Source: Calditrichota bacterium (GTDB taxonomy: Bacteria > Zhuqueibacterota > JdFR-76 > BMS3Abin05). From it: 64,000 bases of DNA. Shown here one piece after another: positions 5,995 through 49,185 of this stretch (position 1 is the stretch's first letter; each line of letters opens with the position of its first letter). The notes under the pieces were generated by a model that did no database searches, was not told the DNA's origin, and saw only the letters and a program-made list of their open reading frames with translations. Position numbers and translations under genes: made by a program. The stretch lies in assembly GCA_013151735.1 (NCBI GenBank), contig JAADHR010000179.1, forward strand, positions 12,656-76,655, in the 5' to 3' direction.

Positions 5995-6030
5995 AAATTA
6001 TTGAAACCACGGAAGGAATGAGAATAAGGA

Positions 6031-14654: not shown

Positions 14655-15016
14655 AAGAATCCTCCGAAATTAATAGAATATATCAATATTAAGATAACGA
14701 AATTTCACGGCAAATGTTACAAAAAATTTCGGGTATTTCCGATCGGCCTTTAAGAGCTCTATTACGTGCCTGTCCTGTTATAACTCCCGGTCCGGCCTGT
14801 TTTTAAAATGATGCACTCTTTGGGAAAATATCACTGTAAATTCTTGAAAAGAAATAAAATGATCAGAATGAATATATGACAATTTTTTAACAAATATTGA
14901 CTTGACAGTCTGATGAAAAATGTATACATTAAATGAAATTTGATTGGGCTTTTCCTTCTTCCGGTTGGGTGTTCTTTCTGCTGAAAAAACCTTGTTTAAT
15001 CCAGGACAAAATACGC

Positions 15017-16456
15017 ATGAAAAAACTATTCTCACTGACTCTTTGGGTGATGTTTTTTTCAAATACCCTTTTTGCTCAGGGCACGAGCAGTAAAATAGAG
15101 AAATTAGTGGGCGGTCATTTCGATTTTGATGGTGAAGTGGTCAGTACCTCTTTGTCTTCTCTTCATTCCGGCCGGTTTACGCCCTCAAACAATTATCTGG
15201 CCTGGATGGATTTTTATCAAAACCCGGCCTTCTCAACGGGTATTAAAAATCCCTTTATAACCACCTTTTTTGCGCCGTCTATTGCGATTCATCCCAATCG
15301 ATTTATGGATGTGAATGGCCGCGTTCAGCGGGCAATAGACAATGGAATAGCCAGTTACCGGTCTGATTCGCTCCGATTGATTTATCCTCAACTCGAAAGT
15401 GTCTTCCGCAAGAACCGATATTGGGGACAGGGTCTCATCAGTTTTCCGGCAGGCGGCGTTGTGTTTACATTGGGCTACCAGCGTCAGCTTTCACTGAATC
15501 TTCAAACCTTTTTAACAGGGGCAGAGGCGACCATTTCCACCCAGGTGCCCCTTTCAGAAACTACAAGTGAGGTGGTTTTTAATGCCTTCCTGGATGCCAA
15601 TTTTCGGTTCAGCATAAATGTGGACAAGACCACAATGGGATTGGCGAAGGTCATTCGCAACCGGTTTGCATTTGGATTTTCTCTGGATCGGTATGGCGGG
15701 AATGTTGAAACGGTTGGATTCATGGATGCGCAGGGGGACATGCTTTTTAACGGTCACGAGTATATTTTTAATAATTCCAATGATAATTGGTACAACCGGC
15801 TGACACAGGCTATTAAAGGCCGATACAAGGGAAGCGGTTGGCGGATGAATTGGGGCGGTTGGTATGTTTATAATCGGAATTTCATTTTCGACGGCGTCAT
15901 TTCCATGCAAACCCCCATGCGCCTGGATGGAAATCTCTCTATTCACGTTAACAAAATTCCCGCACTGAACATCGACGCCCTGTCTTCGGATGATCCCAAC
16001 GCGGAAATTCTGGATCCGGCGAAGCTGGATTTGTCCCAATTAACCCTCACCGATTCCGTAGAAAATCCCACATATCCGGCCCTTTTTCTGCATCAACAAT
16101 CGTATCTGAAAGTGGGAGTTCTCTACCAAACGCCGCATTTTTATTGGTACAACAGTATGGTCCAGAATTTTGGTTACGCCGGAATAGGCTATGGACCCTA
16201 CGAATTTGGATTGCAATCAAAACTGGATTGGCAAACCCTGTTTGGATTCCATCATTTTTATATGGAAATCCGATTAAAATATATGAAGAGTTTTATTCAT
16301 CATTCGGAAAAGCTCGGAAAGGGAGAAAGCCGAATCTGGCTGCCTTCATTTGCCATGGGGTATGCCCGGCTGTTTCAAAAACATTACCCGATTCATGTCG
16401 GACTTTCCCTTTTGCCCGATCCCATTCTCTATTTTTCAACGGGCTACCAATTTTAA
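15017..16456 (+). CDS. Secreted outer-membrane beta-barrel protein, FadL/PorV-like (candidate T9SS-associated)
   Basis: Signal peptide MKKLFSLTLWVMFFSNTLFAQG. 'FYQNPAF' NPA hatch-like motif. Aromatic C-terminus ...GYQF. Sits immediately upstream of two T9SS cargo genes. Confidence 0.45.
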   Translation: MKKLFSLTLWVMFFSNTLFAQGTSSKIEKLVGGHFDFDGEVVSTSLSSLHSGRFTPSNNYLAWMDFYQNPAFSTGIKNPFITTFFAPSIAIHPNRFMDVNGRVQRAIDNGIASYRSDSLRLIYPQLESVFRKNRYWGQGLISFPAGGVVFTLGYQRQLSLNLQTFLTGAEATISTQVPLSETTSEVVFNAFLDANFRFSINVDKTTMGLAKVIRNRFAFGFSLDRYGGNVETVGFMDAQGDMLFNGHEYIFNNSNDNWYNRLTQAIKGRYKGSGWRMNWGGWYVYNRNFIFDGVISMQTPMRLDGNLSIHVNKIPALNIDALSSDDPNAEILDPAKLDLSQLTLTDSVENPTYPALFLHQQSYLKVGVLYQTPHFYWYNSMVQNFGYAGIGYGPYEFGLQSKLDWQTLFGFHHFYMEIRLKYMKSFIHHSEKLGKGESRIWLPSFAMGYARLFQKHYPIHVGLSLLPDPILYFSTGYQF

Positions 16457-16506
16457 TGCTTTCGGCAGGTTTTGAACAGTTTTCATTTTGAATTTTAGGC
16501 GGGATA

Positions 16507-19500
16507 ATGCAAAAAAAAGCAGTTCTAATTTGGATTGGGCTAATTGTCCTGATGTTACCCCATCAGGCTGCGGCCCAGCAAATTACACTTACAAGCGTAC
16601 CCTATCAGCTCATTAGTGAGTCCGAATCCGTTACGGTGACATGGGCAGAGCCGATTCAGGCGACACTTCATTACGGAACGACCCATGGAGTGTACAATGC
16701 CTCAATTTCAAAAAGCGGTACGCGCTCACTCACATTTACTCCGCAAAATGAAGGCATTCATCCCGGGGTTTATTATGGGATTATTACCAATGGCTCGCTG
16801 CGGTCGGCTGAGTTTCCGTTCATTGTAGAGGCATCTGTGTCTCCGATTATGCGCGAACCCACAAATAACGGAACCGTTCGGACAGCCACGCCTGAATTTC
16901 AGTGGGATGAAGTTTCCGGGGTTCCCTTTTACCACCTCATTCTTTCCGATCACGAAGCGATTATTACACGGGATCCCGATACCGGCGAGTTGCAGTTAAC
17001 CGGTGCCAATATCATCTGGCAGGTGATTACGTCTGAGACACATATTACGTATGGCGATCCCGATCCTTCCGGCTACTTTACGGATTTCAACGGGACCACT
17101 CCGCCGCTGCTCAATGGAAATCACTACACCTGGATCGTGCTGAACAACTATGGAAATAATCCGGCCTTCACATCATTGGTTCAATCAGGTGTAAGTGCGT
17201 TCTACGTTAATCTTTCCACGACAGCAGCCAAGCCCATTCTTATCTCACCGGCTGACGGAGTCTCTCTGAATTCAAAAACCATTACATTCCAATGGCAGCC
17301 TGCGTCCGGTGCGGTCAATTATCAAATTTCACTGTTTGAGTACATTTACGAAGAGGGAAGTTCCTCCAGCTTTCTCATTTGGAGCACCACCACTTCGAAT
17401 ACGTCCATTGATTTTCCGGCACGCACAGTATTAAAGGGAACGAAATACGCCTGGCGTGTACTGGCCATGGACAATTCCGGCAACGGAACGCCAAGCGACA
17501 CGCGTCAATTTTCTTACACTGTACCGGTCAGCGCATTAAGCATTCGCACCCTTCAGATGGATGGAACCAATCTTCCCCGAACCAACGTTACCTTAACGGC
17601 TATTGATGGCTCTTCGGATAACGTGTCTTTCATTACATCGGATAATGGCAATTTTACAGCTACGGTCCGGCCGGGTTCGTATGCGATTACGGGTTCAAAG
17701 GAAGGCTTTTTGGATACGACTAAAACCGTTGAGGTGGAGGCGGGGGATACCCTTTCCGTCGCATTGCGTTTAAGGAAGGCGTCCCATCGCGTAAAGGGGG
17801 TCACGCGTAACCAGGCCGATCAGCTTCTGCCGTCTGTTTCACTGCGGGCGGAAGAGAATCTTTCCGGCCGGCTTCTGGAGACCTCCTCCGACGCAAACGG
17901 GAATTTCGTACTCAGCCTTTCCAGCGGGGTCTGGGATATCTGGGGACAGAAAGAGAACTATTCCAATTCAGATACGGTTCGGGTTGTGTTATCATCTCAG
18001 GAAGAAGTAACCTTGGCTCAGCCCCTTGTTTTAAAGGAATTTGACAGTTTCATTACGGGTACGGTGGTGGATGTAAATAAACAGCCCGTTATTACGGCAC
18101 GCGTACAGGCACAGAAGGATGCACGGGTTGTTTCTCAGTTTACGGCCAATAATGGATCTTTTCGCTTGCAGGTGAGCAGCGGCAAGTGGACGGTGACGGT
18201 TACAAAGGGAGGCTATGTGAGCCCGGCGCCCCGAATTGTCCAGGTGACGCCCGGAGCGACAATAAATCTGACTCCCGACCTGGAGCTCACGTCCAATGCC
18301 GGGGTTTTGACCGGCTTTGTTTTCAGCGGACAGAACTCCGTAAATGGGGCGGAAGTGAAGGCCATCCCTCCGTCAGGACAGCCGGTTTCTTTTTTAACCG
18401 ATCCCAAGGGAGCGTATGCGTTGAATCTGGCTCCCGGGAATTATACCGTCACCGTTTCCAAGCAGGGGTACGCACCACCTGACCCGCTGCAGGTATCTCT
18501 GCACTCCGGTGAAACCCTTTCCAACCTGAATTTTAATCTTCGGGTAAATCCCGTTTTTATCTCCGGAAAAGCCGCCTCAGGCGGAAAACCCCTTGAAGGG
18601 GTGATCATTCAGACAGACGGGGCAAACGACACGACTCTTTCTGACGGGTCTTACCGCCTTTGGGTTCAACCCGGGACGTACCGAATAACGGCATCCAAAA
18701 CGGGATATGCGGCAACGGGAATTCAAACCGTAACCATTGCCCTGGGTGAAAATAAGACAGGGGTCAATTTTACACTTGTGCCCAATGTTGGAACGATTAA
18801 GGGACGTGTTCAACAGGGGAATTTGCCCATTGTGGGGGCAGCCGTTTTGGCCTATTCCGGAACGGATACATTTCGCACGCTGCCCGGAAATGTGGGACAA
18901 TACACCCTTTCGGTAAAACCCGGCACCTGGACAATCCGGGCTGAAAAGGAAGGCTTTGTTCCCGCCCAATTGAATACGCCCGTGCAATCCGGTCAAACCG
19001 TTACGGGTGTGGATTTCAATCTTACACTCAACTTGGGCACGATTTCCGGAAAAATCACGGACAATCATGGACGGGCGGTTGAAAATGCATGGGTCGATGT
19101 GATTGGAGAAAATCTCCAATCGGTGTCTGATCTGAATGGAAATTACACCATTCAGCTGGAACCGGGACCTTACCAGCTAAAGGCATGGAAACCGGGGTTT
19201 AGCAGCCAGACGACGTCCGTTACGGCAGTACTTAATTCAACAATTACGAAGAATTTTTCCCTGACCACCATGGGAACGTTGACCGGAAAAATAACGGACA
19301 GTTCCACGGGTCTGCCCATCAATAAGGCGGCCGTGTGGGTGATCCTGGGAGCCGACACGACGCAAACGGAAACGGATTACACGGGCGAATACACCTTTTT
19401 TCTCAATTCGGGGACGTACACCCTGGTCGCCGATCAATTGGGATATCACCGAAAGCAGCTCAGTGTGTCGCTTGCGGCAGGTGCCGTCAAAATCCAAAAT

Positions 19501-20712
19501 ATGGCGCTTCAGCCGGATCCCACGGAAATAGCCCGGATTCAGGGCAAAATTCTGGATGATTTTCACAAACCTATGGTGGGTGTTCCAATTTCACTCTCCG
19601 GTGGGAAGGTGGATATCATTTACACGGAAACGGATGGAACGTACGATATCAAGAAACTGCAAACCGGTTTGGATTACACCCTGCGTCCCAAACTGCCGGG
19701 CTTTTTCTTCGTTCCGTCCAAAAGACGCTTTGCTCCTCTGATCGCCAACAAAACCGGCCAGGATTTTGCCGGAGCTCTGTACGGAGATGTGAGCGGCAAC
19801 AAAGAGGTCAGTTCATTTGACGGGTCGCTTATCCTTAGAATCAGCGCTCAGCAAAATGTGGCCCCGTATTATCGAAATCAGCCGAGGGATTCCATCGCGG
19901 CCGACGTCAGCGGTAACGGACAGGTGAGTTCCTTCGATGCATCGCTTATTTTTCGCTATTCGGTCAATCTGATTGATCGCTTTCCTGTGGAACCGTCCCG
20001 ACTGGGAAAAGGGCTCGAAAATTATTCTGATCCGGAGGTTCACGTGTTTACATTTGCGGTGAAACATCTGGATGAAACCCGTTGGGCTGTTGATATTCAA
20101 GCGGATAATCTGAATCATATTTACGCCACGCAATGGAAAATTGAGGTCGATCGGCAGTGGGTAAATGTACAGAATTGTGTCTTGTTCCGCTCCTCGGAAG
20201 GCCATGCTCTGGCCTGGTCGGAGAAAAATGGTGTGCTTACCATTGCAACGGCGGGCCCTGAAGCGCTGGAGGGCTCCGGAAAACTGCTTCGCATTTTGAT
20301 TGAGGTGAAGGGGGATCCGTCCATTTCCCCCGAAACCTTTTTGGAGGTGAGGCAGGTGCAGGTGAATGAGGGGCTGGTTGTGTCAGAATTTCAGCCGCCT
20401 GAACGGACCCGGCTTCCAACGCAATTTCGTTTGTATGATAATTATCCCAATCCCTTCAACGGTGAAACCCTGATTCGGTTTGCGGTTCCGTCAGAAGACC
20501 ATGTACAAGGGGTTTCAGTCGATTTGTCCGTTTACAATGTGCTGGGACAAAAGGTGCGGCAGCTTGTGCAAAAAAAACTGGCACCCGGCTATTATCAGTT
20601 CAAATGGAACGGAACGGACGAATCGGGCAATCAGGTTCCGGGCGGGGTCTATTTTTATCGATTAAAGGCCAAAAATCGGGTTTATGTGAAAAAGCTTTTA
20701 CTTTTGAAATAG
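16507..20712 (+). CDS. Giant T9SS cargo protein: FN3-like and about 9 carboxypeptidase-regulatory-like (CarbopepD_reg) repeats, a type-I dockerin pair, a cohesin-like module and a T9SS C-terminal sorting domain
   Basis: Signal peptide. Repeated roughly 80-aa G.V.D..G.P...A.V...TD.dG.F units. Dockerin pair DVSGNKEVSSFDGSLILRIS / DVSGNGQVSSFDASLIFRYS. C-terminal YPNPFNGETLIRFAVP...GVYFYRLKA (T9SS type-A CTD). Confidence 0.8.
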   Translation: MQKKAVLIWIGLIVLMLPHQAAAQQITLTSVPYQLISESESVTVTWAEPIQATLHYGTTHGVYNASISKSGTRSLTFTPQNEGIHPGVYYGIITNGSLRSAEFPFIVEASVSPIMREPTNNGTVRTATPEFQWDEVSGVPFYHLILSDHEAIITRDPDTGELQLTGANIIWQVITSETHITYGDPDPSGYFTDFNGTTPPLLNGNHYTWIVLNNYGNNPAFTSLVQSGVSAFYVNLSTTAAKPILISPADGVSLNSKTITFQWQPASGAVNYQISLFEYIYEEGSSSSFLIWSTTTSNTSIDFPARTVLKGTKYAWRVLAMDNSGNGTPSDTRQFSYTVPVSALSIRTLQMDGTNLPRTNVTLTAIDGSSDNVSFITSDNGNFTATVRPGSYAITGSKEGFLDTTKTVEVEAGDTLSVALRLRKASHRVKGVTRNQADQLLPSVSLRAEENLSGRLLETSSDANGNFVLSLSSGVWDIWGQKENYSNSDTVRVVLSSQEEVTLAQPLVLKEFDSFITGTVVDVNKQPVITARVQAQKDARVVSQFTANNGSFRLQVSSGKWTVTVTKGGYVSPAPRIVQVTPGATINLTPDLELTSNAGVLTGFVFSGQNSVNGAEVKAIPPSGQPVSFLTDPKGAYALNLAPGNYTVTVSKQGYAPPDPLQVSLHSGETLSNLNFNLRVNPVFISGKAASGGKPLEGVIIQTDGANDTTLSDGSYRLWVQPGTYRITASKTGYAATGIQTVTIALGENKTGVNFTLVPNVGTIKGRVQQGNLPIVGAAVLAYSGTDTFRTLPGNVGQYTLSVKPGTWTIRAEKEGFVPAQLNTPVQSGQTVTGVDFNLTLNLGTISGKITDNHGRAVENAWVDVIGENLQSVSDLNGNYTIQLEPGPYQLKAWKPGFSSQTTSVTAVLNSTITKNFSLTTMGTLTGKITDSSTGLPINKAAVWVILGADTTQTETDYTGEYTFFLNSGTYTLVADQLGYHRKQLSVSLAAGAVKIQNMALQPDPTEIARIQGKILDDFHKPMVGVPISLSGGKVDIIYTETDGTYDIKKLQTGLDYTLRPKLPGFFFVPSKRRFAPLIANKTGQDFAGALYGDVSGNKEVSSFDGSLILRISAQQNVAPYYRNQPRDSIAADVSGNGQVSSFDASLIFRYSVNLIDRFPVEPSRLGKGLENYSDPEVHVFTFAVKHLDETRWAVDIQADNLNHIYATQWKIEVDRQWVNVQNCVLFRSSEGHALAWSEKNGVLTIATAGPEALEGSGKLLRILIEVKGDPSISPETFLEVRQVQVNEGLVVSEFQPPERTRLPTQFRLYDNYPNPFNGETLIRFAVPSEDHVQGVSVDLSVYNVLGQKVRQLVQKKLAPGYYQFKWNGTDESGNQVPGGVYFYRLKAKNRVYVKKLLLLK
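19777..19990 (+). other. Dockerin type-I module (two Ca-binding repeats) inside the 1401-aa protein
   Basis: Both repeats match D-V-[NS]-G-[DN]-G-x-V-[NS]-S-x-D-x-x-L-[IL]-x-R-[YI]. They are separated by a linker of about 25 aa. Confidence 0.7.
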
Positions 20713-20715
20713 GTT

Positions 20716-23700
20716 GTGTCTATGAAACGTTTATGCGTGTTTTTTTGGGGAGCACTACTTTTTGCCACGACGGCCTATGCTCAAACCGTTACGGTCTCGG
20801 TGCCGGATATTCAGCAGTCGGAAGGAAAAACATTCCGGTTGCCGGTGAAGGTGTCTGACCTTTCCGGGTTAAATATTTACTCATTCGATTTAACGCTGGT
20901 TTATGATCCCGGTGTTTTAACGGCTCTGGATGCCCGAACGTCGGGTTCCCTTTCGGCCTCCTGGGGGCCGGCCACAAAAAACATCACCAGCGGGCAAATT
21001 CAGGTGGGTATTGGGGGAACGAATGCCTTGTCGGGTGCCGGGGATTTGATTTACCTTATTTTTAAGGTCAATAATGGGGTGTCTGTCGGCAAAACGTCCA
21101 TATTGACATTTACAAACTTTAAATTCAATGAGGGGTCTCCATCTGTCCAATTAAACAATGGAACATTTACGGTTATTTTGGATACCGAGCCCCCAAAGAT
21201 CACATCGGGCCCGCAGGCAGTCAATCTTACAGCGCATTCGGCCGACATTCACTGGCGAACGGATGAACCCGCCGACAGCAAGGTGGAATACGGACTCACC
21301 TCTTCGTACGGAGACGTGTTGGAAAATTCCTCCTTGGTTACGTCCCATTCGGTAACGCTTCATCCACTCAAACCTTCGACTACCTACCATTACCGGGTTG
21401 CATCCAAAGACAAATTGGGGAACGGCCCAACGGTTTCTTCGGATCAAACCTTTACAACGGCCGCTATTATTGCCCGTTTGCCTTCGCTTTCCCTGGATCC
21501 GGGGGCGGACATTATTTTCCCTCTGACCGTGACGGATGTTTCGGAGCAGGGGATTACGTCTGCAGAAATCGTCGTCACCTACGACGCCGGACTTTTATCT
21601 CCGACAGGCGTCAGTTCGGACGGCACCCTTATTTCCGCATGGAATTCTCCGGCATTTCAGGTGGAATCCGGAAAAATCACCATTACCCTTTCCGGTACGA
21701 CACCTTTGAGCGGGTCGGGGATTTTGGTCAACATACAGTTTCACATTTCAGACGCGGCGAAAATCGGGCAAACCACGCCCCTTACATTTCAGAAATTTAT
21801 GTTGAAAAACAGCGGGGGCGAAACCATACCTGCCACCACCCAGAACGGGCGGTTTACCGTAGAGGATACGCGTCCTCCGGAAATTGTGTCGGGTCCGCAG
21901 GTGGAATCCATCACTGCCAAAAGTGCCGTAGTCACCTGGCAGACCAATGAAAAAAGTACCAGTATTGTGCGATATGGGCGCGATACATCGTATGGATGGC
22001 AGAAAAAGAATCAGACGCGTACCCTTCAGCATTCCGTTCTGTTGTCCAATCTTTCACCGTCTACGACGTACCATTTTCAGGTGGGCTCAGTGGATTCCAG
22101 CGGGAACGGTCCCACATTCAGCCAGGATGCCACTTTCAGCACGGAAGCCGGAACCGGAATTATTTTAACGGCGGAAAATGTCACGGGACAGGCGGGAAAT
22201 GATGTCACCGTGCCGCTCCGGGTGACGGATGTAAGCCAGCAGGGCGTCAGACGCTACACCGTTGTACTGACCTACGATTCGGAGCTGATCACGGCGGTTT
22301 CGGCTCAAACGTCCGGTACTTTAACGTCCGGTTGGGGCGCTCCGGTTTTTCAAAAAGTGGATGGACAGGTGGTTATCCAGGGACAATCCGGTACGCCCCT
22401 TGCCGGAGCGGGAGTACTGGTGAAGGTGATTTTTCACGTCAAATCGGACGTAACCGACGGCGTAACCACTCCTATTTCCTTTGTCTTTGCCCAATTCAAT
22501 ACGGGGATGCCTGAATTGACCACCGCGAACGGGTTGCTTACCCTTCGCGGAACCCCCGACAGCCAGGCACCGCAGATCACGTTTGGACCCTTTGCACAAA
22601 ATATCTCGGCAACCGGGGCACAAATCGTTTGGGTTACGGACGAGCCTTCTTCCGGGATTGTGGAATTCGGAACGGGGACCTCCTACGGACAAACGGCGGG
22701 GGGGGCAGCTGTTTTTGAACGGATTCACCGGATCACCCTGTCGGGGCTGCTTCCGGGCACCCGCTACCATTTTCGGGTCAAATCATCGGATCGCTGGGGA
22801 AACGGACCCACTGTCAGCCCGGATGCTTCTTTCCAGACCACCAATGGAGGGGAAGTACAGGTCTCTCTTCCCAACCGGACCATTCGTGCCGGAACACAAT
22901 TCGACTGGCCCATTCAAATCGGGGACGTTTCCGGAAAGTCCGTTTATTCGGCCGACATCACGGTGACTTTTGATCCCGACGTGCTCACGGCCATTTCGGC
23001 CTCTACGTCGGGGACACGGGCCAGCAGTTGGGGGCCTCCCACCACAACCGTGAAAAGGGGCAAAATAATTATTGCGATGGGAGGAATTAGTGCCCTTAGC
23101 GGCAGTGGCAGCCTGGTCAAAATCCGCTTTCAGGTATCCGGATCCGCAAAGGAAGGAACCCAGGCACCGGTTGTTTTTCAGCGGTTCGTTTTTAATGAAG
23201 GAACACCGGCTTCTGTTTACAGGGGGGGACTGTTTACGGTCAAGGATGTGACGGCACCGAAAATTACAGCGGGACCCTCCGTGGTGGCAAAAACGGCGTC
23301 TACGGCCACTATTTTGTGGGCAACGAATGAAGCGTCTACCGGGAGGATTGACTACGGTGAGACCGCTTCTTACGGCCAGATGGAAGAAAGCGGCATTCTC
23401 GAAAAAAGTCACCTGGCGGTCATAACCGGATTGTATTCGGGGACAACCTACCATTTTCGTGTCTCATCAACGGATGCCAGTGGAAACGGGCCCACACAAA
23501 GCGCCGACCAGACCTTTCAAACGGTGGTTGAACAGCCCATGATTTTCCGGCTGCCTTCCGTGGCCTACGATGTGGGACACACATTTGATTTACCCGTTCG
23601 ATTGGACAGCCTTGGAAATGGCAGTCTGTATTCCTTCAAAATGACCCTGAAGTTTGATTCCCGTTATCTCGAGGCAACAGGGGTGAAAACTGCAGGAAGT

Positions 23701-26700
23701 TTGACCGAGTTCTGGGAAGCGCCCGTGGTGAGTGTCGGCCCGGATTCGGTTTCCATTGAAATGCGTTCCAACAATCCGATCCACGAAAACGGCGTTCTTT
23801 TTAAGGTACAATTTCGGGTTAAAACCGGTGGAGCTTACAATTACCCGACTCCTCTGACTTTGCAGAATGTTTCTGCAAATGGCCTTTCTTCGGGCTTCGT
23901 TATTCGGGAGGGCCGCTTTACGCTTCGCGATCTGACGCCTCCGGAAATCTTGACGGGTCCCAATTCCACCGAGGTTCGGGCTCATTCGGTTCACATTGTC
24001 TGGACAACAAACGAGCCGTCCAACAGTAAAGTGGATTACGGAGTGACTTCCACGTATGACAAGGCTGTTGAAAGCGAGGACCTGGTAACCTACCACGATC
24101 TGGCGGTTGCCGGACTCAATCCAAACACGACGTATCATTTTCGTGTCAGTTCAACCGATTCTGTGGGCAATGGGCCGGTTCAAAGCACCGATCAAACCTT
24201 TACCACGACGTCTGGAAATGAGGTGGTGGTTTCCATTCCCGACACCCTGGCCCCTGTGGGGCAGACCATCTGGTACCCGGTTTCTGTTGAAGATGTCACC
24301 GGAAAGAACATCACCCGCTACCATTTCATCCTAAAATACGATTCTTCGGCGGTTCGCGCGCTTCAGGTGAGAAAAACCGGAACGCTTTCAGCATCCTGGG
24401 GTACGCCCACCGTTGGGATAACCGACACATCTATTACAGTGGATCACACCGGAAATGCCCCTCTTTCGGGCAGCGGAGATTTGATTCAGATTCAATTTAA
24501 GATTAAGGCCACGGCCGGAGTGGGCCGGGATGTGGGACTGATTTTTCAAGAGTTTACCTTTAATACCGGAGATCCGCCGGCTTCCCCCAACAGCGCACGA
24601 TGGCTTTTGGTTGACCGCACCCCGCCTGAGTTTGTGGGAACGCCAAAGGTCACAGATGTGGGGTTTAATTATGCGACCCTATTCTGGAAAACCAATGAAT
24701 TAACGACAGGCAAAATTGATTACGGCACAACACCCAGTTACGGAAAACAACTCAAAGAAACGAAAATAGACACCGTTCACCGGATCACGATAGAGAATTT
24801 GACCGCTCTTACAACCTATCATTTCAGGGTGTCTGTCACGGATACGGCAGGGAACGGGCCGGTTTTGAGCAAGGATCTAAGCTTCACCACATTGTCCGAC
24901 ACGGTTTTTGTTACCGTCCCCGACACAACGGTCCCCATGGGCAGTACGTTTGAATTGCCGCTGGTCGTAACCAATCTGACGGGATTTGGAATCACCCGTT
25001 TTGCCATTGAGATTGCCTACAATCCCGATCAGATTACGGCGTTGGGGGCGTCTTCCAGGGGGACACTTGCTCAGGATTGGGGTGTGCCTGCTTTTTCCGC
25101 TTCCGATCATGTGCTTCACGTGGAAATGTCCGGGACAGAGCCGCTCAAAGGAACCGGTGTTTTAATCCGGCTGAAATTCCAATTATTGGGTGGTGTGGTG
25201 CCCGGCACGGATCTGGAAATTCCGTTTCAATCGTTTCAGTTTAATAACGGAACGCCGGTTGTAAAGACCACACCGGCAAAAATCCACGCCATTGCGGGGG
25301 GGAGCGGAATTGAGGTTTCCCTGCCGGATACCAGTTTTTTACCCGGCAAAAGCGTGCGGATCCCGGTCAGGGTAGGAGATCTAACTCAGAAAGGAATATT
25401 CTCATTTAACGGGAAATTGGTTTTTTCTCATTCGGTTCTCAAAATAAGCGGCGCCACCACCCAAAAGTCCCTGCTGGAAGCCTGGAAGACAATTGATGCG
25501 TCTGTTTACCCGGACAGCGTCATTTTTTCGGCGCAGGGGACAAAGGCTCTTTCGGACTCCGGTGTCTTATTTTATTTTGAGGGGACAACCAATTCTCAGG
25601 CCAATGAAGGCGATACGAGTTCCCTCATTTTGGAGCGGTTTACCTTTAATCGCGGAAACCCTGTGGCTCAGGTGAAAAACGGGAGAGTGCGAATTGTTAT
25701 CCGTCACGATGCCATTTCGGGCCTTGTTTTTGAGTCGGACAGCGTAACGGTTTTACCGGGCGCGACAATTTCTGCCCGGGAAACGGGAACCCAAACCGTA
25801 AAAACGGCCCGGTCGGACACAACGGGATTTTTTCAGATTCGCGGTCTGGATTCAACCCGAACCTATGACGTGTTTGCTTCCAAAGCGGGTTACACCCCCT
25901 CGGACATTTTGAGGAAAATCAAGCCCGGGGCCCGAAATCTGAAATTGTACCTTGAAAAACAAAACGGGTTTATTGACGGCTGGGTTAAGGCGAATACGGG
26001 TGAACCGGTGGTGGGGGCTCTTGTCGTGGCAGACGACGGACACACGCACTTCGGTTCGGGGAATACGGACTCTACCGGCCACTTTGCCATCAACAATCTG
26101 GCAAAACGGTACGCGTACACAGTGAAGATTACAAAATATGGTTTTCACGATAAAATTATTTCCAATGTTGCCGTCAATCAAACGGTTTCCGTTACACTGG
26201 ATTGGTTTTACGGCCGGGTTTTGGGAATGGTTAGAGACACGACCCGGGCACCCATGGATAGTGTGTGGGTACAGGCATTGAATCTGAAAAAGGGAACGCG
26301 AGTGGACAGCTTCTTAACCGGAAAAGACGGCCGCTACCAACTGGACAGCCTGAAAGCCGACCAATATTTGGTTTACGCTCTTCGTAACGGATTTGTCAGT
26401 ACGCCCAACCAGGTCACGGTTAACCTGGCACCCGGAGATACCGTAACGGAAGATTTTATCCTGGAAAAGGCTGTTTTGGCCTCGATTGAAATCTCGGGCG
26501 ACCGGGAGATTCCCAATAATGTTCCTTCCCGTTTCGATTTTGTGGCCAAGACGGCCGGCGGAAAGGTCATGGGCCTGCAATCGCCCGTCTGGAAACTCTG
26601 GCCGGAGGCCGCGGGGGTTGTCAGTCAGGGGGTGGTGTACCCGGATTCTCAGTATTTTGGGGAGGCTTTTCTGTCCGTAATGGACCCGTTTACCGGAATT

Positions 26701-27447
26701 GCAGATACACTGGCCATTTCTCTGTATGCTCCGGTGAGCCCTTCTTCGCAGCTCACCGTTAAAAATGCAGACGGCGTAACCCTGGCCATTGCGGCGGGAT
26801 CCGTAGACCAGCCTCAAAAAATAAAAATTCAAGCCATCTCGCTTCCATCCGTAAAGAAGAGTACAAAGCGGTACGCGGCTTTGGGGAAAGGTTATCTGCT
26901 GAAACCGGGAGGCTTTCATTTTCTAAAGCCCCTCCAATTAACTCTGCCGGTTCCGGAGGGATTTGTTCCGAAGCGCACGCGCATCGGCAAATGGAATCAG
27001 GAATTGGCCCGATGGGACATTCTGGAAACCCGGGTAACCGGAGAGCGTGCGATTACGGCCGATGTGGAATCCTTTTCGCTTCTGGCCGTTCTTAACCCGG
27101 CACGTGATCTCGGAATGGAATCGCTCAAATTGATCCCGAATCCCTTTTCGCCTGTGGTGGATTCGGATGGGGATGGCAGTCCCGGCCTGACCATTCAGTT
27201 TTTAATTACCTCACGGGACACGCGGCGTCCCTTTGTGACCATTGAGATTTACAGCATGGTCGGCCAGAAGGTGCGAACCCTGTTGGATGACCAGCCGGAA
27301 AATAAGGACCAGTATTTGCGCTTTCACTGGGATGGGCTGACCGATGATGGCCGAATGGCCCGAAACGGGCGCTATCTGATAAAAATTGACGTATCGGATG
27401 CAACCGGTACAAAAACAACCCTTAAAACCGTGGTTCTGGTGAAATAA
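20716..27447 (+). CDS. Giant scaffoldin-like T9SS cargo protein: 8 cohesin-like modules (7 of them each followed by an FN3/PAP-N-like module), CarbopepD_reg-like repeats, T9SS C-terminal sorting domain
   Basis: Each cohesin-like module starts with an (V/I)x(V/L)S(L/V)PD... motif and has ...GSGxLIxIxFKV... in its C-terminal half. FN3-like modules ...P(P/K)ITSGP...W(T/R)T(D/N)EP...YG.T.SYG...TYH(Y/F)RV.S.D..GNGP. C-terminal LKLIPNPFSP...IEIYSMVGQKVRTL...GRYLIKIDV CTD. Confidence 0.8.
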   Translation: MSMKRLCVFFWGALLFATTAYAQTVTVSVPDIQQSEGKTFRLPVKVSDLSGLNIYSFDLTLVYDPGVLTALDARTSGSLSASWGPATKNITSGQIQVGIGGTNALSGAGDLIYLIFKVNNGVSVGKTSILTFTNFKFNEGSPSVQLNNGTFTVILDTEPPKITSGPQAVNLTAHSADIHWRTDEPADSKVEYGLTSSYGDVLENSSLVTSHSVTLHPLKPSTTYHYRVASKDKLGNGPTVSSDQTFTTAAIIARLPSLSLDPGADIIFPLTVTDVSEQGITSAEIVVTYDAGLLSPTGVSSDGTLISAWNSPAFQVESGKITITLSGTTPLSGSGILVNIQFHISDAAKIGQTTPLTFQKFMLKNSGGETIPATTQNGRFTVEDTRPPEIVSGPQVESITAKSAVVTWQTNEKSTSIVRYGRDTSYGWQKKNQTRTLQHSVLLSNLSPSTTYHFQVGSVDSSGNGPTFSQDATFSTEAGTGIILTAENVTGQAGNDVTVPLRVTDVSQQGVRRYTVVLTYDSELITAVSAQTSGTLTSGWGAPVFQKVDGQVVIQGQSGTPLAGAGVLVKVIFHVKSDVTDGVTTPISFVFAQFNTGMPELTTANGLLTLRGTPDSQAPQITFGPFAQNISATGAQIVWVTDEPSSGIVEFGTGTSYGQTAGGAAVFERIHRITLSGLLPGTRYHFRVKSSDRWGNGPTVSPDASFQTTNGGEVQVSLPNRTIRAGTQFDWPIQIGDVSGKSVYSADITVTFDPDVLTAISASTSGTRASSWGPPTTTVKRGKIIIAMGGISALSGSGSLVKIRFQVSGSAKEGTQAPVVFQRFVFNEGTPASVYRGGLFTVKDVTAPKITAGPSVVAKTASTATILWATNEASTGRIDYGETASYGQMEESGILEKSHLAVITGLYSGTTYHFRVSSTDASGNGPTQSADQTFQTVVEQPMIFRLPSVAYDVGHTFDLPVRLDSLGNGSLYSFKMTLKFDSRYLEATGVKTAGSLTEFWEAPVVSVGPDSVSIEMRSNNPIHENGVLFKVQFRVKTGGAYNYPTPLTLQNVSANGLSSGFVIREGRFTLRDLTPPEILTGPNSTEVRAHSVHIVWTTNEPSNSKVDYGVTSTYDKAVESEDLVTYHDLAVAGLNPNTTYHFRVSSTDSVGNGPVQSTDQTFTTTSGNEVVVSIPDTLAPVGQTIWYPVSVEDVTGKNITRYHFILKYDSSAVRALQVRKTGTLSASWGTPTVGITDTSITVDHTGNAPLSGSGDLIQIQFKIKATAGVGRDVGLIFQEFTFNTGDPPASPNSARWLLVDRTPPEFVGTPKVTDVGFNYATLFWKTNELTTGKIDYGTTPSYGKQLKETKIDTVHRITIENLTALTTYHFRVSVTDTAGNGPVLSKDLSFTTLSDTVFVTVPDTTVPMGSTFELPLVVTNLTGFGITRFAIEIAYNPDQITALGASSRGTLAQDWGVPAFSASDHVLHVEMSGTEPLKGTGVLIRLKFQLLGGVVPGTDLEIPFQSFQFNNGTPVVKTTPAKIHAIAGGSGIEVSLPDTSFLPGKSVRIPVRVGDLTQKGIFSFNGKLVFSHSVLKISGATTQKSLLEAWKTIDASVYPDSVIFSAQGTKALSDSGVLFYFEGTTNSQANEGDTSSLILERFTFNRGNPVAQVKNGRVRIVIRHDAISGLVFESDSVTVLPGATISARETGTQTVKTARSDTTGFFQIRGLDSTRTYDVFASKAGYTPSDILRKIKPGARNLKLYLEKQNGFIDGWVKANTGEPVVGALVVADDGHTHFGSGNTDSTGHFAINNLAKRYAYTVKITKYGFHDKIISNVAVNQTVSVTLDWFYGRVLGMVRDTTRAPMDSVWVQALNLKKGTRVDSFLTGKDGRYQLDSLKADQYLVYALRNGFVSTPNQVTVNLAPGDTVTEDFILEKAVLASIEISGDREIPNNVPSRFDFVAKTAGGKVMGLQSPVWKLWPEAAGVVSQGVVYPDSQYFGEAFLSVMDPFTGIADTLAISLYAPVSPSSQLTVKNADGVTLAIAAGSVDQPQKIKIQAISLPSVKKSTKRYAALGKGYLLKPGGFHFLKPLQLTLPVPEGFVPKRTRIGKWNQELARWDILETRVTGERAITADVESFSLLAVLNPARDLGMESLKLIPNPFSPVVDSDGDGSPGLTIQFLITSRDTRRPFVTIEIYSMVGQKVRTLLDDQPENKDQYLRFHWDGLTDDGRMARNGRYLIKIDVSDATGTKTTLKTVVLVK
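20785..25700 (+). repeat. Tandem coding repeats: cohesin + FN3 modules with a period of about 680-695 bp (x7), then a cohesin-only unit
   Basis: Module starts at about 20785, 21463, 22154, 22850, 23538, 24221, 24901 and 25306. Similarity is at protein level, so the repeats are diverged rather than identical. Confidence 0.6.
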
Positions 27448-27449
27448 AA

Positions 27450-28385
27450 ATGAAAAAACGAACGCTTGTAATTTTCGTGTGGCTGCTGCTGGGTGTGGGG
27501 GTGACGACCGTCCGGGCTCAGGACTTGGCCGGTATCCCTGCTGCTTTTGTGGACATCGGATTTGGGGCCCGGCCCTTGGGTATGTCCGGCGCGTATTCCG
27601 CCGCAAGTAACGGGGTGGAATCGCTTCTCTGGAATCCGGCCGGACTGGCGGGAGTCCCTTTTGTTCAGGGAACATTCAGCACCACCCGGCAGCTGGGACT
27701 TATCCCTTATCAAATGGCGGCGGCCGCCTTTCGCTTCGGGCTGAATTTTGTTCATTCCGAAGGAATCATCCTTTCGGGCGACGACGCCATGCGGGAATTT
27801 ACATTTCTGGTGGGGTTGAGCTACGAAAAACGGTGGGAAACCGGGTCTTGGGTCAGAGGCGGGGCGACGATCAGCTACCGCAATGCCAGCTTTGGGAAAA
27901 ATGCCGCTCAGAACGAGGGAGCAGTCACCGGAAGCGCATCGGGATTTTCCATGGATTGGGGCGTTCAGTACTCCCCGGCGAAACACTACGTTCTGGCGGC
28001 CGTCCTGAAAAATATGGTAAATTATCTGCAATGGAACAGCTCCACTCTCGGAAAATACAGCGAGGGTACACCCAGGCAATTGGTTTTTGGTCTCGCTGCA
28101 TTGGACATTTTGAAATTTAATTTTGATTTGGATTTCGAGAAAGCTCTCTACCAAGACGTTGCAGACCGCTTTTCTTTTGGGATGGAACGCCCGATTTACA
28201 AATACTTTTTTCTGAGAGGCGGCATTTCACGGGGATTGGTTCCCTCGGATTTCTTATCGACGGCCGTTGGCGGGGGACTTCGGTATCGGTTTCCTCAGGG
28301 GTTTATCCTGTATCTGGATGGAGCGTATATTTTTCAGGATTTAAACAACAATTTCCGGCTGTCGGTTTCTTTCGATCTGGAATGA
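27450..28385 (+). CDS. Small outer-membrane beta-barrel, FadL/PorV-like (NPA hatch motif); candidate T9SS cargo-shuttle/anchor partner
   Basis: Signal peptide MKKRTLVIFVWLLLGVGVTTVRAQ. ...GMSGAYSAASNGVESLLWNPAGLAG resembles the FadL-family N-terminal hatch. Starts 3 nt after the scaffoldin stop. Confidence 0.45.
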   Translation: MKKRTLVIFVWLLLGVGVTTVRAQDLAGIPAAFVDIGFGARPLGMSGAYSAASNGVESLLWNPAGLAGVPFVQGTFSTTRQLGLIPYQMAAAAFRFGLNFVHSEGIILSGDDAMREFTFLVGLSYEKRWETGSWVRGGATISYRNASFGKNAAQNEGAVTGSASGFSMDWGVQYSPAKHYVLAAVLKNMVNYLQWNSSTLGKYSEGTPRQLVFGLAALDILKFNFDLDFEKALYQDVADRFSFGMERPIYKYFFLRGGISRGLVPSDFLSTAVGGGLRYRFPQGFILYLDGAYIFQDLNNNFRLSVSFDLE

Positions 28386-28448: not shown

Positions 28449-29540
28449 TTAAGCGATGCGCTTTAACACCACCAGCGAGAGATCGTCTCCCAGGCGGGAA
28501 TGACCCACAAACTGACGGACATCCGCCAGGAGTTTTTCTCCCATTTCCCGGGCAGATAAATGGGATCGTTTTTCAAAAAGCGTGAACAGCCGTTCTTCGC
28601 CGAAAAACTCACCCTGCTCATTGAGTGCCTCGGTTAAACCGTCGGAATAGATCAGGAGGAAATCCCCTTCCTGAAGGATGACGGTTTGCTGCGAATATTC
28701 AGCATTTGGAAGCAATCCCAAAGCCGGTCCTCCCTTTGACGTTTCCTTGAACCCCATTTTTGTCACAACAACCGGGGGCAAATGCCCGGCATTAATGAAC
28801 CGGATTTCGTGAGAATTCGATCCCAACTCCAGATAAACCAGCGAAGAGAAATTTTGCGGAAGAACATCCCTGTAAAAGATGCGATTTATTCTGAAGACCA
28901 AATCTGGAAGCGATTCAGCTTCCGGCGCCAATGCCCGGATGGTGGCCTGCAATTTGGCCATCAATAAGGCTGCCGGCAGGCCCTTGCCCGACACATCTCC
29001 GAGAGCAACCGCATATCGATCCTGATCCAATTCCAAAAAATCAATCAGGTCTCCGCCCACTTCGTTGGCAGACTGGGTAAAGAGCCACAGTTCCCAGTTG
29101 GGTACGTTCGGCATGGGGGGAGGAGCCAGGGCTTTCTGAATAGCCCGTCCCTCGGCTAATTCATTTTGGGCAACCAGTTTGTCTTTTAATTCAAGCATCA
29201 GAACAAAGAGGATGATTAATTCGCCCAAGAAATTGGTATTTGCAGTGGTTCTTCCGAATTGAAAAGACGGCATTAAAAACAAGGCGATGAGCAGCAAAAT
29301 ACGACGGGCAGGTGTGAGCTTAAAAAAGAGGGTTTTTAAAAGCCACCAGACAAGAAAGAGCCAACGCTTGACTTTTCCCATATTTTGCAGACGTTTTTTC
29401 CGATCGCGAGTGAGAAAGAAATCCTGCAGGCCTAAAAAATCATCCCGGATAGTCTTCCAGAGTCCGGTTTGGTGAAGATCATTTAAAATTGTTTTTCCAA
29501 TTTTCTGATTGTCACTGGATGTTGAATCCGTGGTTTTCAT
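28449..29540 (-). CDS. PP2C-type (SpoIIE/RsbU-like) serine phosphatase with N-terminal membrane segment
   Basis: GDVSGKGLPAALLMAKL...NAGHLPP...GDFLLIYSDGLTEA motifs of PPM/SpoIIE phosphatases. Confidence 0.8.
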   Translation of the reverse strand: MKTTDSTSSDNQKIGKTILNDLHQTGLWKTIRDDFLGLQDFFLTRDRKKRLQNMGKVKRWLFLVWWLLKTLFFKLTPARRILLLIALFLMPSFQFGRTTANTNFLGELIILFVLMLELKDKLVAQNELAEGRAIQKALAPPPMPNVPNWELWLFTQSANEVGGDLIDFLELDQDRYAVALGDVSGKGLPAALLMAKLQATIRALAPEAESLPDLVFRINRIFYRDVLPQNFSSLVYLELGSNSHEIRFINAGHLPPVVVTKMGFKETSKGGPALGLLPNAEYSQQTVILQEGDFLLIYSDGLTEALNEQGEFFGEERLFTLFEKRSHLSAREMGEKLLADVRQFVGHSRLGDDLSLVVLKRIA

Positions 29541-41561: not shown

Positions 41562-42141
41562 CAACACTGCCATCGTACTGGCGGGCGGAAGCAGCACCCG
41601 AATGGGCCGGCCAAAGGCTTTGCTTAATTTTGGCGGAATTTCGCTGATTGAGAGAGTGGTTCATCAATTGCGCCCGGTAACCGAGGATATTCGGATTATT
41701 ACAAATACGCCCGAATTGTACACATTTCTCAATTTACCCATGCACGCTGATTTTATTCCCGATAGCGGGCCCCTGGCCGGTATTTTTACCGGACTGGCGA
41801 TCACACGAAGCGAACCGGTTATTGTGATGGCTTGCGATACCCCCTTTATTACAACAGAGTATTTTTTCTTTTTACTGGACCAGTGGTCAGACAAGATAAG
41901 CTGTCTGATTCCCAAAATAGGCCGTTTTTATGAGCCGTTGGCGGGACTCTATTCCCATCGAGCCATGCCGGTGATCGAAGAATTATTAAAAAGCGGAAAC
42001 CGGAAAATTGAGTCCCTTTTTGACCGGGTTCCCACAAAAACGCTGAGCAAAAGAGATCTGGCTCAATTTGGGGATCTCCGTAAATTTTTCTGGAATATCA
42101 ATGATCCCGAAGGGTATGAAGAGGCGCTCAAACAGTTGTGA
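41542..42141 (+). CDS. mobA: Molybdenum cofactor guanylyltransferase
   Basis: AIVLAGGSSTRMGRPKALL N-terminal motif; length of about 199 aa. Confidence 0.8.
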   Translation: MAFRRNNNTAIVLAGGSSTRMGRPKALLNFGGISLIERVVHQLRPVTEDIRIITNTPELYTFLNLPMHADFIPDSGPLAGIFTGLAITRSEPVIVMACDTPFITTEYFFFLLDQWSDKISCLIPKIGRFYEPLAGLYSHRAMPVIEELLKSGNRKIESLFDRVPTKTLSKRDLAQFGDLRKFFWNINDPEGYEEALKQL

Positions 42142-42329
42142 CGAAATGCCGTCACATTGTCGAAAATGCATCATTTGCGACTGCTCAAAGGGATTCCTGG
42201 GACAAAGCCTTTTGGTTTTCACCTTTTGAAGAATCAAACGGTTACGCTGTTATGAAGGTTATCTGGACATATCGGGGGATTGAATGGCATAGCTTTTGTT
42301 GTAATTGATTTCAATCACATTATTCAATA

Positions 42330-42476: not shown

Positions 42477-42586
42477 TTTGAAAAATCTGTCGTAAAAATC
42501 CATAGAGAAACGCAGGAGACCGGGGAACGGATCAGAGAATATTGGATCTGCCTCCGGCAAATTAAATTTTTCCATTGGGAGGAAAC

Positions 42587-43219: not shown

Positions 43220-43288
43220 AAAGAAACAACAGAGCGGCTTTATTATGATTCTGGCTTTCCCGGTTTTTTTACAACATTTATCTGCCAT

Positions 43289-49164: not shown

Positions 49165-49185
49165 ATAAAGGAGGTGAGTGTAGTT

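Follow-up and report, generated by a model that had tools for sequence, protein, structure and literature searches.

A co-inherited pair of FadL/PorV-superfamily barrels adjoining giant cohesin- and dockerin-bearing proteins in Calditrichota is probably a dedicated surface-anchoring kit

In Bacteroidota, T9SS cargo carrying a C-terminal sorting domain (CTD) of type A is served by the general barrel PorV and not by dedicated barrels. To our knowledge, the only dedicated barrels described for T9SS cargo to date are the PorP/SprF barrels of Bacteroidota, which serve type-B CTDs. Adjacent cognate PorP/SprF barrels bind, and are needed for, type-B CTD cargo (PMC12618676, PMC9143113). The locus described here, in which two barrel genes (A and D) accompany two giant genes (B and C), follows the same genetic logic as the pairs SprF-SprB and PorP-PG1035, where a small barrel gene adjoins that of a giant adhesin-like cargo which the barrel presumably shuttles or anchors (PMC12618676, PMC9143113). 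However, PorP/SprF systems have one barrel per module whereas two different barrels are present here, and their cargo CTDs are of type B (CHU_C) whereas those of the present cargo fit type A (FlgD_ig) better.

Barrel D resembles PorV (LptO) and PorQ in its full-length family homology, its predicted 14-strand barrel, its N-terminal WNPA hatch and its best superposition, which is on PorV, and the PorV and PorQ pair is echoed by the two barrels of the module. The CTD-binding, surface-holding role proposed for D would mirror those of PorV towards PorU and of PorQ towards PorZ. In contrast to PorV and PorQ, D lies below all curated cut-offs, is shorter (311 aa as against 367-402 aa) and adjoins one specific giant cargo, where PorV and PorQ serve all type-A cargo; the hosts of PorV and PorQ are Bacteroidia, those of the module Calditrichota, KSB1 and Ignavibacteria-like bacteria. 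FadL, TodX and CymD (PF03349) have fold, hatch and NPA motif in common with A and D, but A and D do not match PF03349, lack a catabolic context and have giant CTD proteins as partners. Cellulosome-type scaffolds likewise combine cohesins, of which C has eight, with a type-I-like dockerin such as that of B, but the bacterium here is Gram-negative, and T9SS CTDs plus barrels, rather than SLH domains or sortase, are predicted to provide the anchoring.

In the window, the whole 64-kb stretch of Calditrichota DNA analysed, barrel genes A and D flank the two giants in the order A-B-C-D (Table 1). The intergenic gaps of 50 bp (A/B), 3 bp (B/C) and 2 bp (C/D) are consistent with a single operon. The earlier note had described the two outer genes as encoding signal-peptide proteins with NPA motifs that bracket cohesin and dockerin cargo, and this description was confirmed: the open reading frames and motifs are in place, B has a dockerin and a CTD, and C has the cohesins. 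An alternative start for gene A is possible at 14933, but MKKLF at 15017 opens every homologue. The sigma-70-like element upstream, which overlaps the ATG at 14933, is a candidate promoter by consensus match; a scan of the region for promoters and terminators gave no enrichment, with counts near the shuffled expectation. The likelier start of gene C is the ATG at 20722.

Table 1. Features of the four-gene locus, numbered from the first nucleotide of the window
Feature	Position	Strand	Description
Sigma-70-like promoter element (candidate)	14902-14930	+	TTGACA-17-TACATT; 10/12 consensus match, 87 bp upstream of gene A
Gene A	15017-16456	+	479 aa; signal-peptide protein, predicted outer-membrane beta-barrel; FadL/PorV-superfamily family without existing model
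NPA motif of A	15221-15229	+	Residues 69-71, in DFYQNPAFSTG; invariant in 12 homologues
Gene B	16507-20712	+	1401-aa putative cargo; CarboxypepD_reg repeats, dockerin, cohesin-like domain, type-A CTD
Dockerin of B	19780-19959	+	Residues 1092-1151; PF00404, 24.4 bits (cut-off 22.9)
CTD of B	20443-20700	+	Residues 1313-1398; TIGR04183, 32.2 bits (cut-off 23)
Gene C	20716-27447	+	2243-aa putative scaffold-like cargo; 8 cohesins, 6 Fn3-like, 3 CarboxypepD_reg, CTD-like end
CTD-like domain of C	27229-27426	+	Residues 2172-2237; FlgD_ig, 26.3 bits (cut-off 27); TIGR04183, 14.9 bits (cut-off 23)
Gene D	27450-28385	+	311 aa; divergent PorV/PorQ-family barrel with 14 predicted strands and N-terminal hatch
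NPA motif of D	27633-27641	+	Residues 62-64, in WNPAG (SLLWNPAGLAG); invariant in 39 homologues

Nine CarboxypepD_reg stretches and a cohesin-like domain were identified in B, while in C the cohesin model PF00963 was matched in eight stretches with 284.7 bits, accompanied by six Fn3/PurAcPhos_N stretches. Both the cohesins of C and the dockerin of B exceed the respective gathering scores. The dockerin possesses a duplicated calcium-loop motif (DVSGN..VSSFD..LI) and, at 52-87% identity among orthologues, exceeds every other segment of B in conservation; it and the N-terminal region 101-300 are the parts best preserved across orthologues. No catalytic or lipid-binding domain was found in B or C by Pfam scan, and neither a glycoside hydrolase nor a CBM is present in the cohesin/dockerin module. 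The CTDs of the two giants are alike (phmmer i-E 5.5e-5). That of B exceeds the TIGR04183 threshold for a type-A CTD, with additional matches to PF18962 (26.8 bits, just under the cut-off of 27) and CHU_C (24.8 bits), whereas that of C stays below both the FlgD_ig and the TIGR04183 thresholds and has no CHU_C match. The resemblance of these CTDs to type A/FlgD_ig is an observation that counts against a dedicated role for the barrels, as do the sub-threshold scores of the C domain.

The signal peptide of D ends in A-Q and is followed by the hatch motif, of which W61, N62, P63, A64 and G65 are invariant across 39 homologues; the WNPA of F. johnsoniae PorV aligns with it. Against NF033709, the model of the PorV/PorQ family, D aligned from residue 32 to 310 (model positions 5-326 of 326) with an E value of 1.5e-12 and a score of 47.7 bits, below the cut-off of 90 bits. 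The equivalog models for PorV (NF033710, at least 250 bits) and PorQ (NF033711, at least 220 bits) did not report D at E ≤ 1, and its relatives reach only 2.5e-9 and 1.2e-12 on them, respectively. All 39 relatives match PorV_fam, the best at 3.4e-29, and PorVQ2; the PorQ and PorV models are matched by 34 and PorP/SprF, weakly, by about 10-11, and neither A nor D itself matches PorP/SprF (PF11751/TIGR03519). When the D-family profile was compared with the PDB, PorV was the top match (6h3i_F, 6e-9). In the AF2 model of D (pLDDT 86.6), a helical N-terminal segment of 47 residues precedes 14 long strands, an arrangement that corresponds to the 14-stranded, hatch-plugged barrel of the FadL superfamily. 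The best TM-scores of this model were obtained with the PorV chains 8gl6_F and 6h3i_F (0.67 and 0.65), and PorV also gave the lowest rmsd. Judged by sequence and predicted structure, D is a divergent member of the PorV/PorQ family, closer to PorV and PorQ than to FadL or PorP. The D family comprises well over 100 clusters, with 126 matches obtained in the search.

Barrel A similarly has a signal peptide ending in A-Q, and its C-terminus, GYQF, is of the OMP type. N69, P70 and A71 are invariant in 12 homologues, and N and P are at least 90% conserved over 68 family members. An NKIPALN...EILDP...LTLT loop (residues 312-345) is likewise invariant. Direct scans of protein A found no Pfam family at E ≤ 1, which places it short of the PF03349 gathering score, and no NCBIfam match, NF033709 included. 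An exhaustive search of representative sequences yielded 182 clusters for the A family, and 13 of 68 members match PorV_fam weakly (best 1e-4). A shallow profile of 12 sequences gave nothing meaningful against PDB sequences and aligned to the D family over only 35 columns around the NPA motif, with a probability of 34%. Homology between A and D was established only with the 68-sequence profile of A, for which hhalign returned a probability of 97.5% and an E value of 6e-12 over 229 columns, with the two NPA motifs aligned to each other. The AF2 model of A is confident (pLDDT 92.3) and shows a larger, atypical barrel; its DSSP string contains approximately 18 beta segments, some of about 30 residues. 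On sequence comparison, A is thus placed as a relative of D at the level of the FadL/PorV superfamily and not as a recognisable PorV or PorQ, and its role is the least certain of the two since its structural matches are loose. Neither barrel in the window reaches a curated family cut-off (D has 47.7 of 90 bits, A no match), which is a further observation counting against dedicated carriers.

The earlier note had considered both proteins as PorV/LptO-, PorP/SprF- or FadL-like barrels, with D closest to FadL. Its proposed checks on models, structure and synteny each favoured that reading, subject to corrections. For D, a full-length PorV/PorQ-family match below cut-off, 14 strands and a hatch were found, and its place in the FadL-fold superfamily stands, although PorV and PorQ rather than FadL are its nearest relatives. 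A has no direct match and is a superfamily-level relative with an atypical barrel.

The best TM-scores of A include FadL-like BamG chains of the Bacteroidota BAM (9hjm_F with 0.43/0.52, 9n2d_B and 9hiv_F), and the BamG model NF053685 is weakly matched by 9 of 39 D relatives and 1 of 68 A relatives. A, D or both might accordingly be seen as biogenesis helpers, that is, BamG-like accessory barrels or folding platforms that neither carry nor anchor cargo. TM-scores of 0.4-0.5, however, indicate only the shared FadL fold, the BamG matches are weaker and rarer than those to PorV_fam, and strict linkage to one cargo gene would not be expected of BAM accessory genes; we consider this explanation very improbable.

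Alternatively, A and D may be uptake channels of the FadL/TodX type for hydrophobic or amphipathic small molecules, where the co-expressed surface scaffold captures substrate and the giants are not handled by the barrels at all. The defining motif of FadL transport function, NPA in the hatch, is present in both proteins, the best Foldseek E values are those of CymD, TodX and FadL for D (1e-11 to 1e-8) and of FadL for A (1.8e-6, a loose fold match with TM 0.33-0.44), and Toluene_X/FadL of Pfam is matched at E ≤ 0.01 by 25 of 39 D relatives and 13 of 68 A relatives, while D itself matches no Pfam family at E ≤ 1 and so falls short of the PF03349 gathering score. The same WNPA is nevertheless present in PorV, and the motif therefore does not discriminate between FadL and PorV. 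All D relatives obtain better scores with PorV_fam than with FadL (39 members against 3), and the structural superposition of D likewise favours PorV. The absence of catalytic and lipid-binding domains from B and C also speaks against uptake, as does the genomic setting, in which no catabolic genes accompany the module, the flanks vary between loci and the constant partner is a giant ending in a CTD. Uptake channels are an unlikely explanation.

A total of 57 non-redundant D genes were collected, 54 of which could be assessed for the upstream ORF. All 54 directly follow a giant ORF ending in a CTD (1,103-2,847 aa when complete), as counted with a CTD HMM derived from 12 upstream ORFs of this kind and hence tuned to that type of cargo. 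An A-family gene lies immediately after D in 31 of the D loci, and immediately before the cargo in the window and in loci L028, L030 and L061; for one example, hhalign provided confirmation at 99.9%. Two arrangements therefore exist, of which cargo-D-A is commoner than the bracketing seen in the window. A search of genomes with the shallow A alignment returned only four genome loci. Relatives in which A is 60%, 30% and 27% identical keep the order A-B-C(-D) amid unrelated flanks, and its recurrence in relatives as distant as these is not attributable to chance. The earlier note had proposed a check of co-occurrence with cohesin-bearing cargo; the link is very strong for both barrel families, but it is to giant CTD cargo in general and reaches far beyond cohesin-bearing proteins. 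The same barrel pair is found beside giant secreted proteins in dozens of uncultured bacteria. A deep A profile added one new protein from the protein database, a very distant family member (17% identity) that stands alone without cargo, so that the link stops short of the most distant A relatives. A general rule of one barrel per cargo, with A serving B and D serving C, was considered and dropped, as single-cargo loci (L015/L078, L028, L030 and L061) carry both barrels. A and D are a co-inherited pair of barrels tied to giant cargo.

Core barrels can adjoin a CTD protein, as the neighbouring porU and porV genes of P. gingivalis and F. johnsoniae illustrate, and the sole curated matches of D are PorV/PorQ-family models. 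D, and perhaps A, might then be the general T9SS PorV/PorQ orthologues of the host, serving all cargo and situated beside two large substrates by chance. This is hard to reconcile with D being far under the PorV (250) and PorQ (220) cut-offs and some 60-90 residues shorter than PorV, and with its following one class of giant without exception. In addition, at a KSB1 locus (L006) one cohesin giant is accompanied by both a genuine PorV/PorQ-family gene (159 bits) and a D-type gene, and loci L004 and L005 suggest tandem copies of the cassette in one genome. General orthologues are quite improbable on this evidence.

A and D, both divergent barrels of the FadL/PorV superfamily, are inherited as a pair with giant cargo, which makes it most likely, with a probability of roughly 0.6, that they are dedicated carrier or anchor barrels for the CTDs of that cargo. 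Barrel-CTD binding, T9SS dependence and cohesin-dockerin pairing are each inferred. Export of B and C would proceed through Sec and thereafter through a T9SS translocon whose genes lie elsewhere in the genome, the presence of a T9SS in the host being assumed from its lineage. At the translocon, D and its larger sister barrel A would receive the CTDs of the cargo, and they would retain the giants on the cell surface, acting as PorV does in holding PorU, PorQ in holding PorZ, and PorP/SprF in holding PG1035/SprB. There, a surface scaffold may form as the B dockerin binds the eight C cohesins and perhaps also the cohesin-like domain within B. The earlier note had gone further in suggesting self-contained secretion. 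The 64-kb window contains neither T9SS core genes (SprA/Sov, PorK/L/M/N, PorU) nor genes for a translocon, motor or sortase, and a hatch-plugged barrel of 14 strands is unable to export a protein of 2,000 aa on its own; that suggestion is therefore not supported, and a dedicated carrier and attachment module is the defensible wording.

More tentatively, and with rather less confidence than in the anchoring role itself, A and D might constitute a third, hitherto undescribed route of T9SS cargo sorting outside Bacteroidia. Giant repeat proteins of about 1,700-2,850 aa with FlgD_ig-like CTDs would bypass the general PorV/PorU sortase pathway and be held non-covalently by a two-barrel outer-membrane dock encoded alongside them, a route that would be widespread in Calditrichota, KSB1 and Ignavibacteria-like lineages of FCB type. 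If so, the dock would nucleate, in the cohesin/dockerin version, a Gram-negative, non-cellulolytic cohesin scaffold. Literature searches on Calditrichaeota or Caldithrix with T9SS returned nothing, and those on 'PorV2' returned no relevant text.

What is new here is a two-barrel solution in near-perfect synteny with giants bearing type-A-like CTDs, in poorly studied phyla, with one barrel like PorV/PorQ and the other from a family that has no Pfam or NCBIfam model. A testable role is thereby offered for about 180 hypothetical A-family clusters and more than 100 D-family clusters; should the hypothesis be wrong, the families would still require explanation because of their unusually strict gene linkage. 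The four genes also make up a compact cohesin-dockerin surface system, from a Gram-negative organism, for which reconstitution is possible. Rather than ordinary porins, the two barrels probably constitute a dedicated kit for surface anchoring, and the finding suggests how very large surface proteins stay on these cells.

Four genes, encoding an outer-membrane barrel (A), a dockerin-bearing cargo protein (B), a cohesin-bearing, scaffold-like cargo protein (C) and a second barrel (D), lie within 14.9-28.4 kb of the window with spacings of 50, 3 and 2 bp. The tight spacing, with a divergent neighbour upstream and a convergent one downstream, marks them as a natural unit. An alternative, longer ORF for A is possible from 14933, although a sigma-70-like element (14902-14930) overlaps this ATG; the start of every A homologue corresponds to the MKKLF of 15017. 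The motifs and signal peptides ascribed to both barrels in the earlier note are present, with FYQNPAFSTG in A and SLLWNPAGLAG in D, and the hatch-like NPA is invariant in 12 homologues of A and 39 of D. The C-terminus of A is the aromatic ...YQF typical of outer-membrane proteins. In all four proteins the signal peptide ends in Ala-Gln, where cleavage is likely, and AQ also occurs in the consensus sequences of the A and D families.

Features of the window and of related loci (L-numbers, from other genomes and metagenomes)
Feature	Position	Strand	Details
Gene A	15017-16456	+	479 aa
Gene B	16507-20712	+	1401 aa
Gene C	20716-27447	+	2243 aa
Gene D	27450-28385	+	311 aa
M1 peptidase gene	12168-14654	-	upstream of A, divergent
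SpoIIE-type phosphatase gene	28449-29540	-	downstream of D, convergent
Signal peptide of A, with likely cleavage site	15017-15085	+	FA/QG
Signal peptide of B, with likely cleavage site	16507-16580	+	AA/QQ
Signal peptide of C, with likely cleavage site	20722-20790	+	YA/QT
Signal peptide of D, with likely cleavage site	27450-27525	+	RA/QD
Cohesin-like domain of B	19960-20430		directly after dockerin
CTD of B	20443-20700
CTD of C	27229-27426
Sigma-54-type two-component regulators	2680-7395		GAF-repeat histidine kinase, NtrC-like activator
Sigma-54-type two-component regulators	40185-45263		AtoC-like activator, AtoS-like kinase
MobA, MoeA	41542-46698		molybdenum-cofactor genes
495-aa ORF	46889-48376		N-terminal 213 residues match NF033939 'outer membrane homotrimeric porin', E 1.6e-18, below cut-off
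Respiratory cluster	49174-63697	+	NapA-like periplasmic nitrate reductase, NapH/NapG-like ferredoxins, cytochrome b6-like protein, several multihaem c-type cytochromes, three formate-dehydrogenase-gamma-like cytochrome b genes
Non-A gene after D	L034:1299-3029		577-aa CTD-ended protein
Non-A ORF after D	L018:1393-2727		445 aa
Non-A ORF after D	L022:3428-5728		767 aa
Permuted loci	L004:1-3917, L005:1-9119		...B-end / C - D - A - B...; A identity 84%, 63%
Variant locus	L006:1-10918		767-aa protein with weak CHU_C/type-B-like CTD, PorV/PorQ gene, 2,249-aa cohesin giant, D-type barrel
P0262	L013:10001-11443 / L014		most distant A-family member found

D is 100% identical to GXO76_12435 of a Calditrichaeota bacterium MAG (NCBI). 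The protein itself gave no match in a Pfam scan, and NF033709, the NCBIfam PorV/PorQ family, aligned over its whole length (E 1.5e-12) at 47.7 bits, below the 90-bit cut-off. All 39 aligned relatives (27-86% identity) matched PorV_fam and PorVQ2; other NCBIfam matches were to PorQ and PorV (34), PorP/SprF (10), BamG (9) and FadL (3), and 25 of the 39 matched Pfam Toluene_X. When the family profile was searched against solved structures, Flavobacterium johnsoniae PorV ranked best (6h3i_F, 6e-9), its WNPA aligning to the WNPAG of D, with FadL-family channels ranking after it. An AF2 model (pLDDT 86.6, pTM 0.80) begins with a helical hatch at the N-terminus and continues in 14 long strands; Foldseek gave its top E-values to CymD, TodX and FadL, and the highest TM-scores and lowest rmsd to PorV chains 8gl6_F (0.67, 6.0 Å) and 6h3i_F (0.65, 5.2 Å). 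Together, profile matches, model and superpositions place D in the PorV/PorQ branch of the FadL superfamily, as a protein both short and divergent, in agreement with the FadL/PorV-like reading first given to it.

The same reading of A stands on homology to the D family, but not on any direct match, since scans of A against Pfam and NCBIfam returned none. A word-indexed search found only 12 homologues; exhaustive profile searching expanded the family to 182 representative clusters, mostly of 470-560 aa. Among 68 aligned members, 13 matched Toluene_X (best 4e-9) and 13, weakly, PorV_fam. The deep A profile aligned to the D family over 229 columns that include the NPA region (hhalign 97.5%, E 6e-12), and, among PDB entries, to TodX and FadL (E 2e-5 to 7e-4). 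The AF2 model (pLDDT 92.3, pTM 0.85) is nearly all beta, with several strands of approximately 30 residues; residues 312-345 (NKIPALN...EILDP...LTLT) are conserved and mostly non-regular. Foldseek placed FadL first (E 1.8e-6) with TM-scores of only 0.33-0.44; the structures that superposed best were a FadL homologue from Pseudomonas aeruginosa and the BamG chains, also FadL-like, from BAM complexes of Bacteroidota. Within the superfamily that it shares with D, A represents a sister family that is both larger and new. A BamG-like role in biogenesis is a rival reading based only on similarity of fold.

Directly downstream of A, the next gene encodes a B orthologue of 1,401-1,409 aa, and C comes after it where the sequence continues; this order was seen at 79%, 60%, 30% and 27% A identity with unrelated flanking genes. 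As for D, five relatives (31-42% identity) were chosen solely by the length of their contigs, and all five directly follow a giant protein ending in a T9SS-type C-terminal domain (CTD). Scanning a metagenome collection with the D alignment yielded 65 loci. All loci were annotated using A-family, D-family and CTD HMMs and cohesin and CarboxypepD_reg profiles, and 57 non-redundant D genes were assessed. In every one of the 54 D loci whose upstream sequence reaches 260 bp or more, a same-strand ORF whose C-terminus matches the CTD HMM ends at D, the HMM having been seeded from 12 such ORFs and thus being tuned to this cargo type. The conserved synteny anticipated in the earlier note was therefore borne out. 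Complete upstream ORFs span 1,103-2,847 aa and carry either eight cohesins and three CarboxypepD_reg domains (about 2,244-2,287 aa) or 11-21 CarboxypepD_reg repeats only.

Bracketing of the cargo by the barrels, also proposed there, describes the window but is not a general rule. In the window, L028, L030 and L061, A directly precedes the cargo, whereas in 31 loci an A-family gene immediately follows D (in one case identified by hhalign at 99.9%, E 3e-33). L028, L030 and L061 each hold a single cargo gene; as both barrels are kept there, a scheme in which A serves B and D serves C was rejected as a general one. A few loci (L008, L016, L018, L019, L022, L034 and others) lack a detectable A, and there the expected A side lies outside the locus. 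Three short metagenome loci have a gene other than A after D. The order in L004 and L005 is a circular permutation of A-B-C-D, which suggests either tandem cassette copies or assembler collapse of repeats; C of L005 has only three cohesins (1,103 aa). P0262 (17% identity; family-profile score 333 bits) is divergent from a TonB-dependent receptor gene and has no giant CTD gene adjacent, so the link of A to cargo is limited to the family core; the fringe may have a different role.

FadL-like uptake of small molecules by A and D is made less probable by these data, since NPA is common to PorV too, PorV-family scores prevail and the CTD giant is the only constant neighbour. That the barrels are the general PorV/PorQ of the organism is likewise weakened, by their sub-threshold scores and by L006, from candidate division KSB1 (GCA_016927835.1), where a genuine PorV/PorQ gene (NF033709, 159 bits) and a D gene both surround the cohesin giant. 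Neither an A nor a B gene can be seen in this locus; in its lineage the place of the upstream bracket is taken by a canonical PorV/PorQ paralogue.

B contains nine CarboxypepD_reg stretches, a dockerin (24.4 bits, cut-off 22.9) and a type-A T9SS CTD (TIGR04183, 32.2 bits, cut-off 23). C contains eight cohesins, six Fn3-like and three CarboxypepD_reg domains, and a FlgD_ig/CTD-like end scoring slightly under thresholds. The domain after the dockerin of B has no Pfam call and weakly resembles the first cohesin of C (BLASTP E 2e-6), so that B could both dock onto C and receive another dockerin. FlgD-type models apart, both CTDs find their top NCBIfam match in the PorU sortase model, at its C-terminal region (NF033707; E 1.1e-9 for B, 2.3e-5 for C). 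The CTD of PorU itself is retained and bound by PorV, and the match would fit a retained, barrel-bound CTD. Giant lengths are almost constant over deep divergence (window 16507-27447; L001, L003, L006, L008, L009, L012, L019-L021 and L024): B measures 1,401-1,409 aa while neighbouring A identity spans 27-87%, and the cohesin giant, always with eight cohesins and six Fn3-like domains, measures approximately 2,243-2,260 aa by gene calls or 2,244-2,287 aa as stop-to-stop ORFs. Such constancy hints at an assembly of fixed geometry and not at a repeat protein free to expand.

Elsewhere in the window, the 495-aa porin-like ORF is a candidate for another outer-membrane protein, unrelated to the cassette; regulatory, molybdenum-cofactor and respiratory genes are also present (see table).

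PorV is the shuttle of type-A cargo and the holder of PorU, and PorQ is the holder of PorZ. Published work on PorV at the T9SS translocon supports these relationships in part (Nat Microbiol 2024, PMC10994853). Genes for PorP/SprF-like barrels adjoin those of type-B cargo, which these barrels bind at the surface and whose secretion requires them (PMC12618676, PMC9143113). A dedicated barrel beside its T9SS cargo is therefore a known concept, and these CTD-binding barrels are the closest mechanistic precedents for A and D; PorP/SprF-like barrels are, however, dedicated to type-B cargo, whereas the cargo CTDs here are type-A-like. From the precedents and the linkage to cargo it is proposed that D and A would use the CTDs of the giants to receive and retain them, at a step after a T9SS translocon whose genes lie elsewhere, and that in the window cassette the cohesins of C would be engaged by the strongly conserved dockerin of B. 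The 64-kb window holds no T9SS core genes, so that of the secretion and attachment module envisaged in the earlier note the barrel pair tied to giant CTD cargo stands, but not a self-contained secretion system. That the host has a T9SS is an assumption, made because the system has been reported across the FCB superphylum (PMC11205867); the NCBI lineage of Calditrichota has no FCB group placement, and no paper on T9SS in Calditrichota was found.

No description of the A/D pair with giant cargo was found in the searchable literature. The combination of a PorV/PorQ-like barrel with a second barrel family lacking an HMM model, its strict coupling to giant cargo whose CTDs are type-A-like, its host phyla and its cohesin/dockerin version all appear to be new. 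A and D are a co-inherited barrel pair, genetically tied to a single class of giant surface proteins that end in a CTD.
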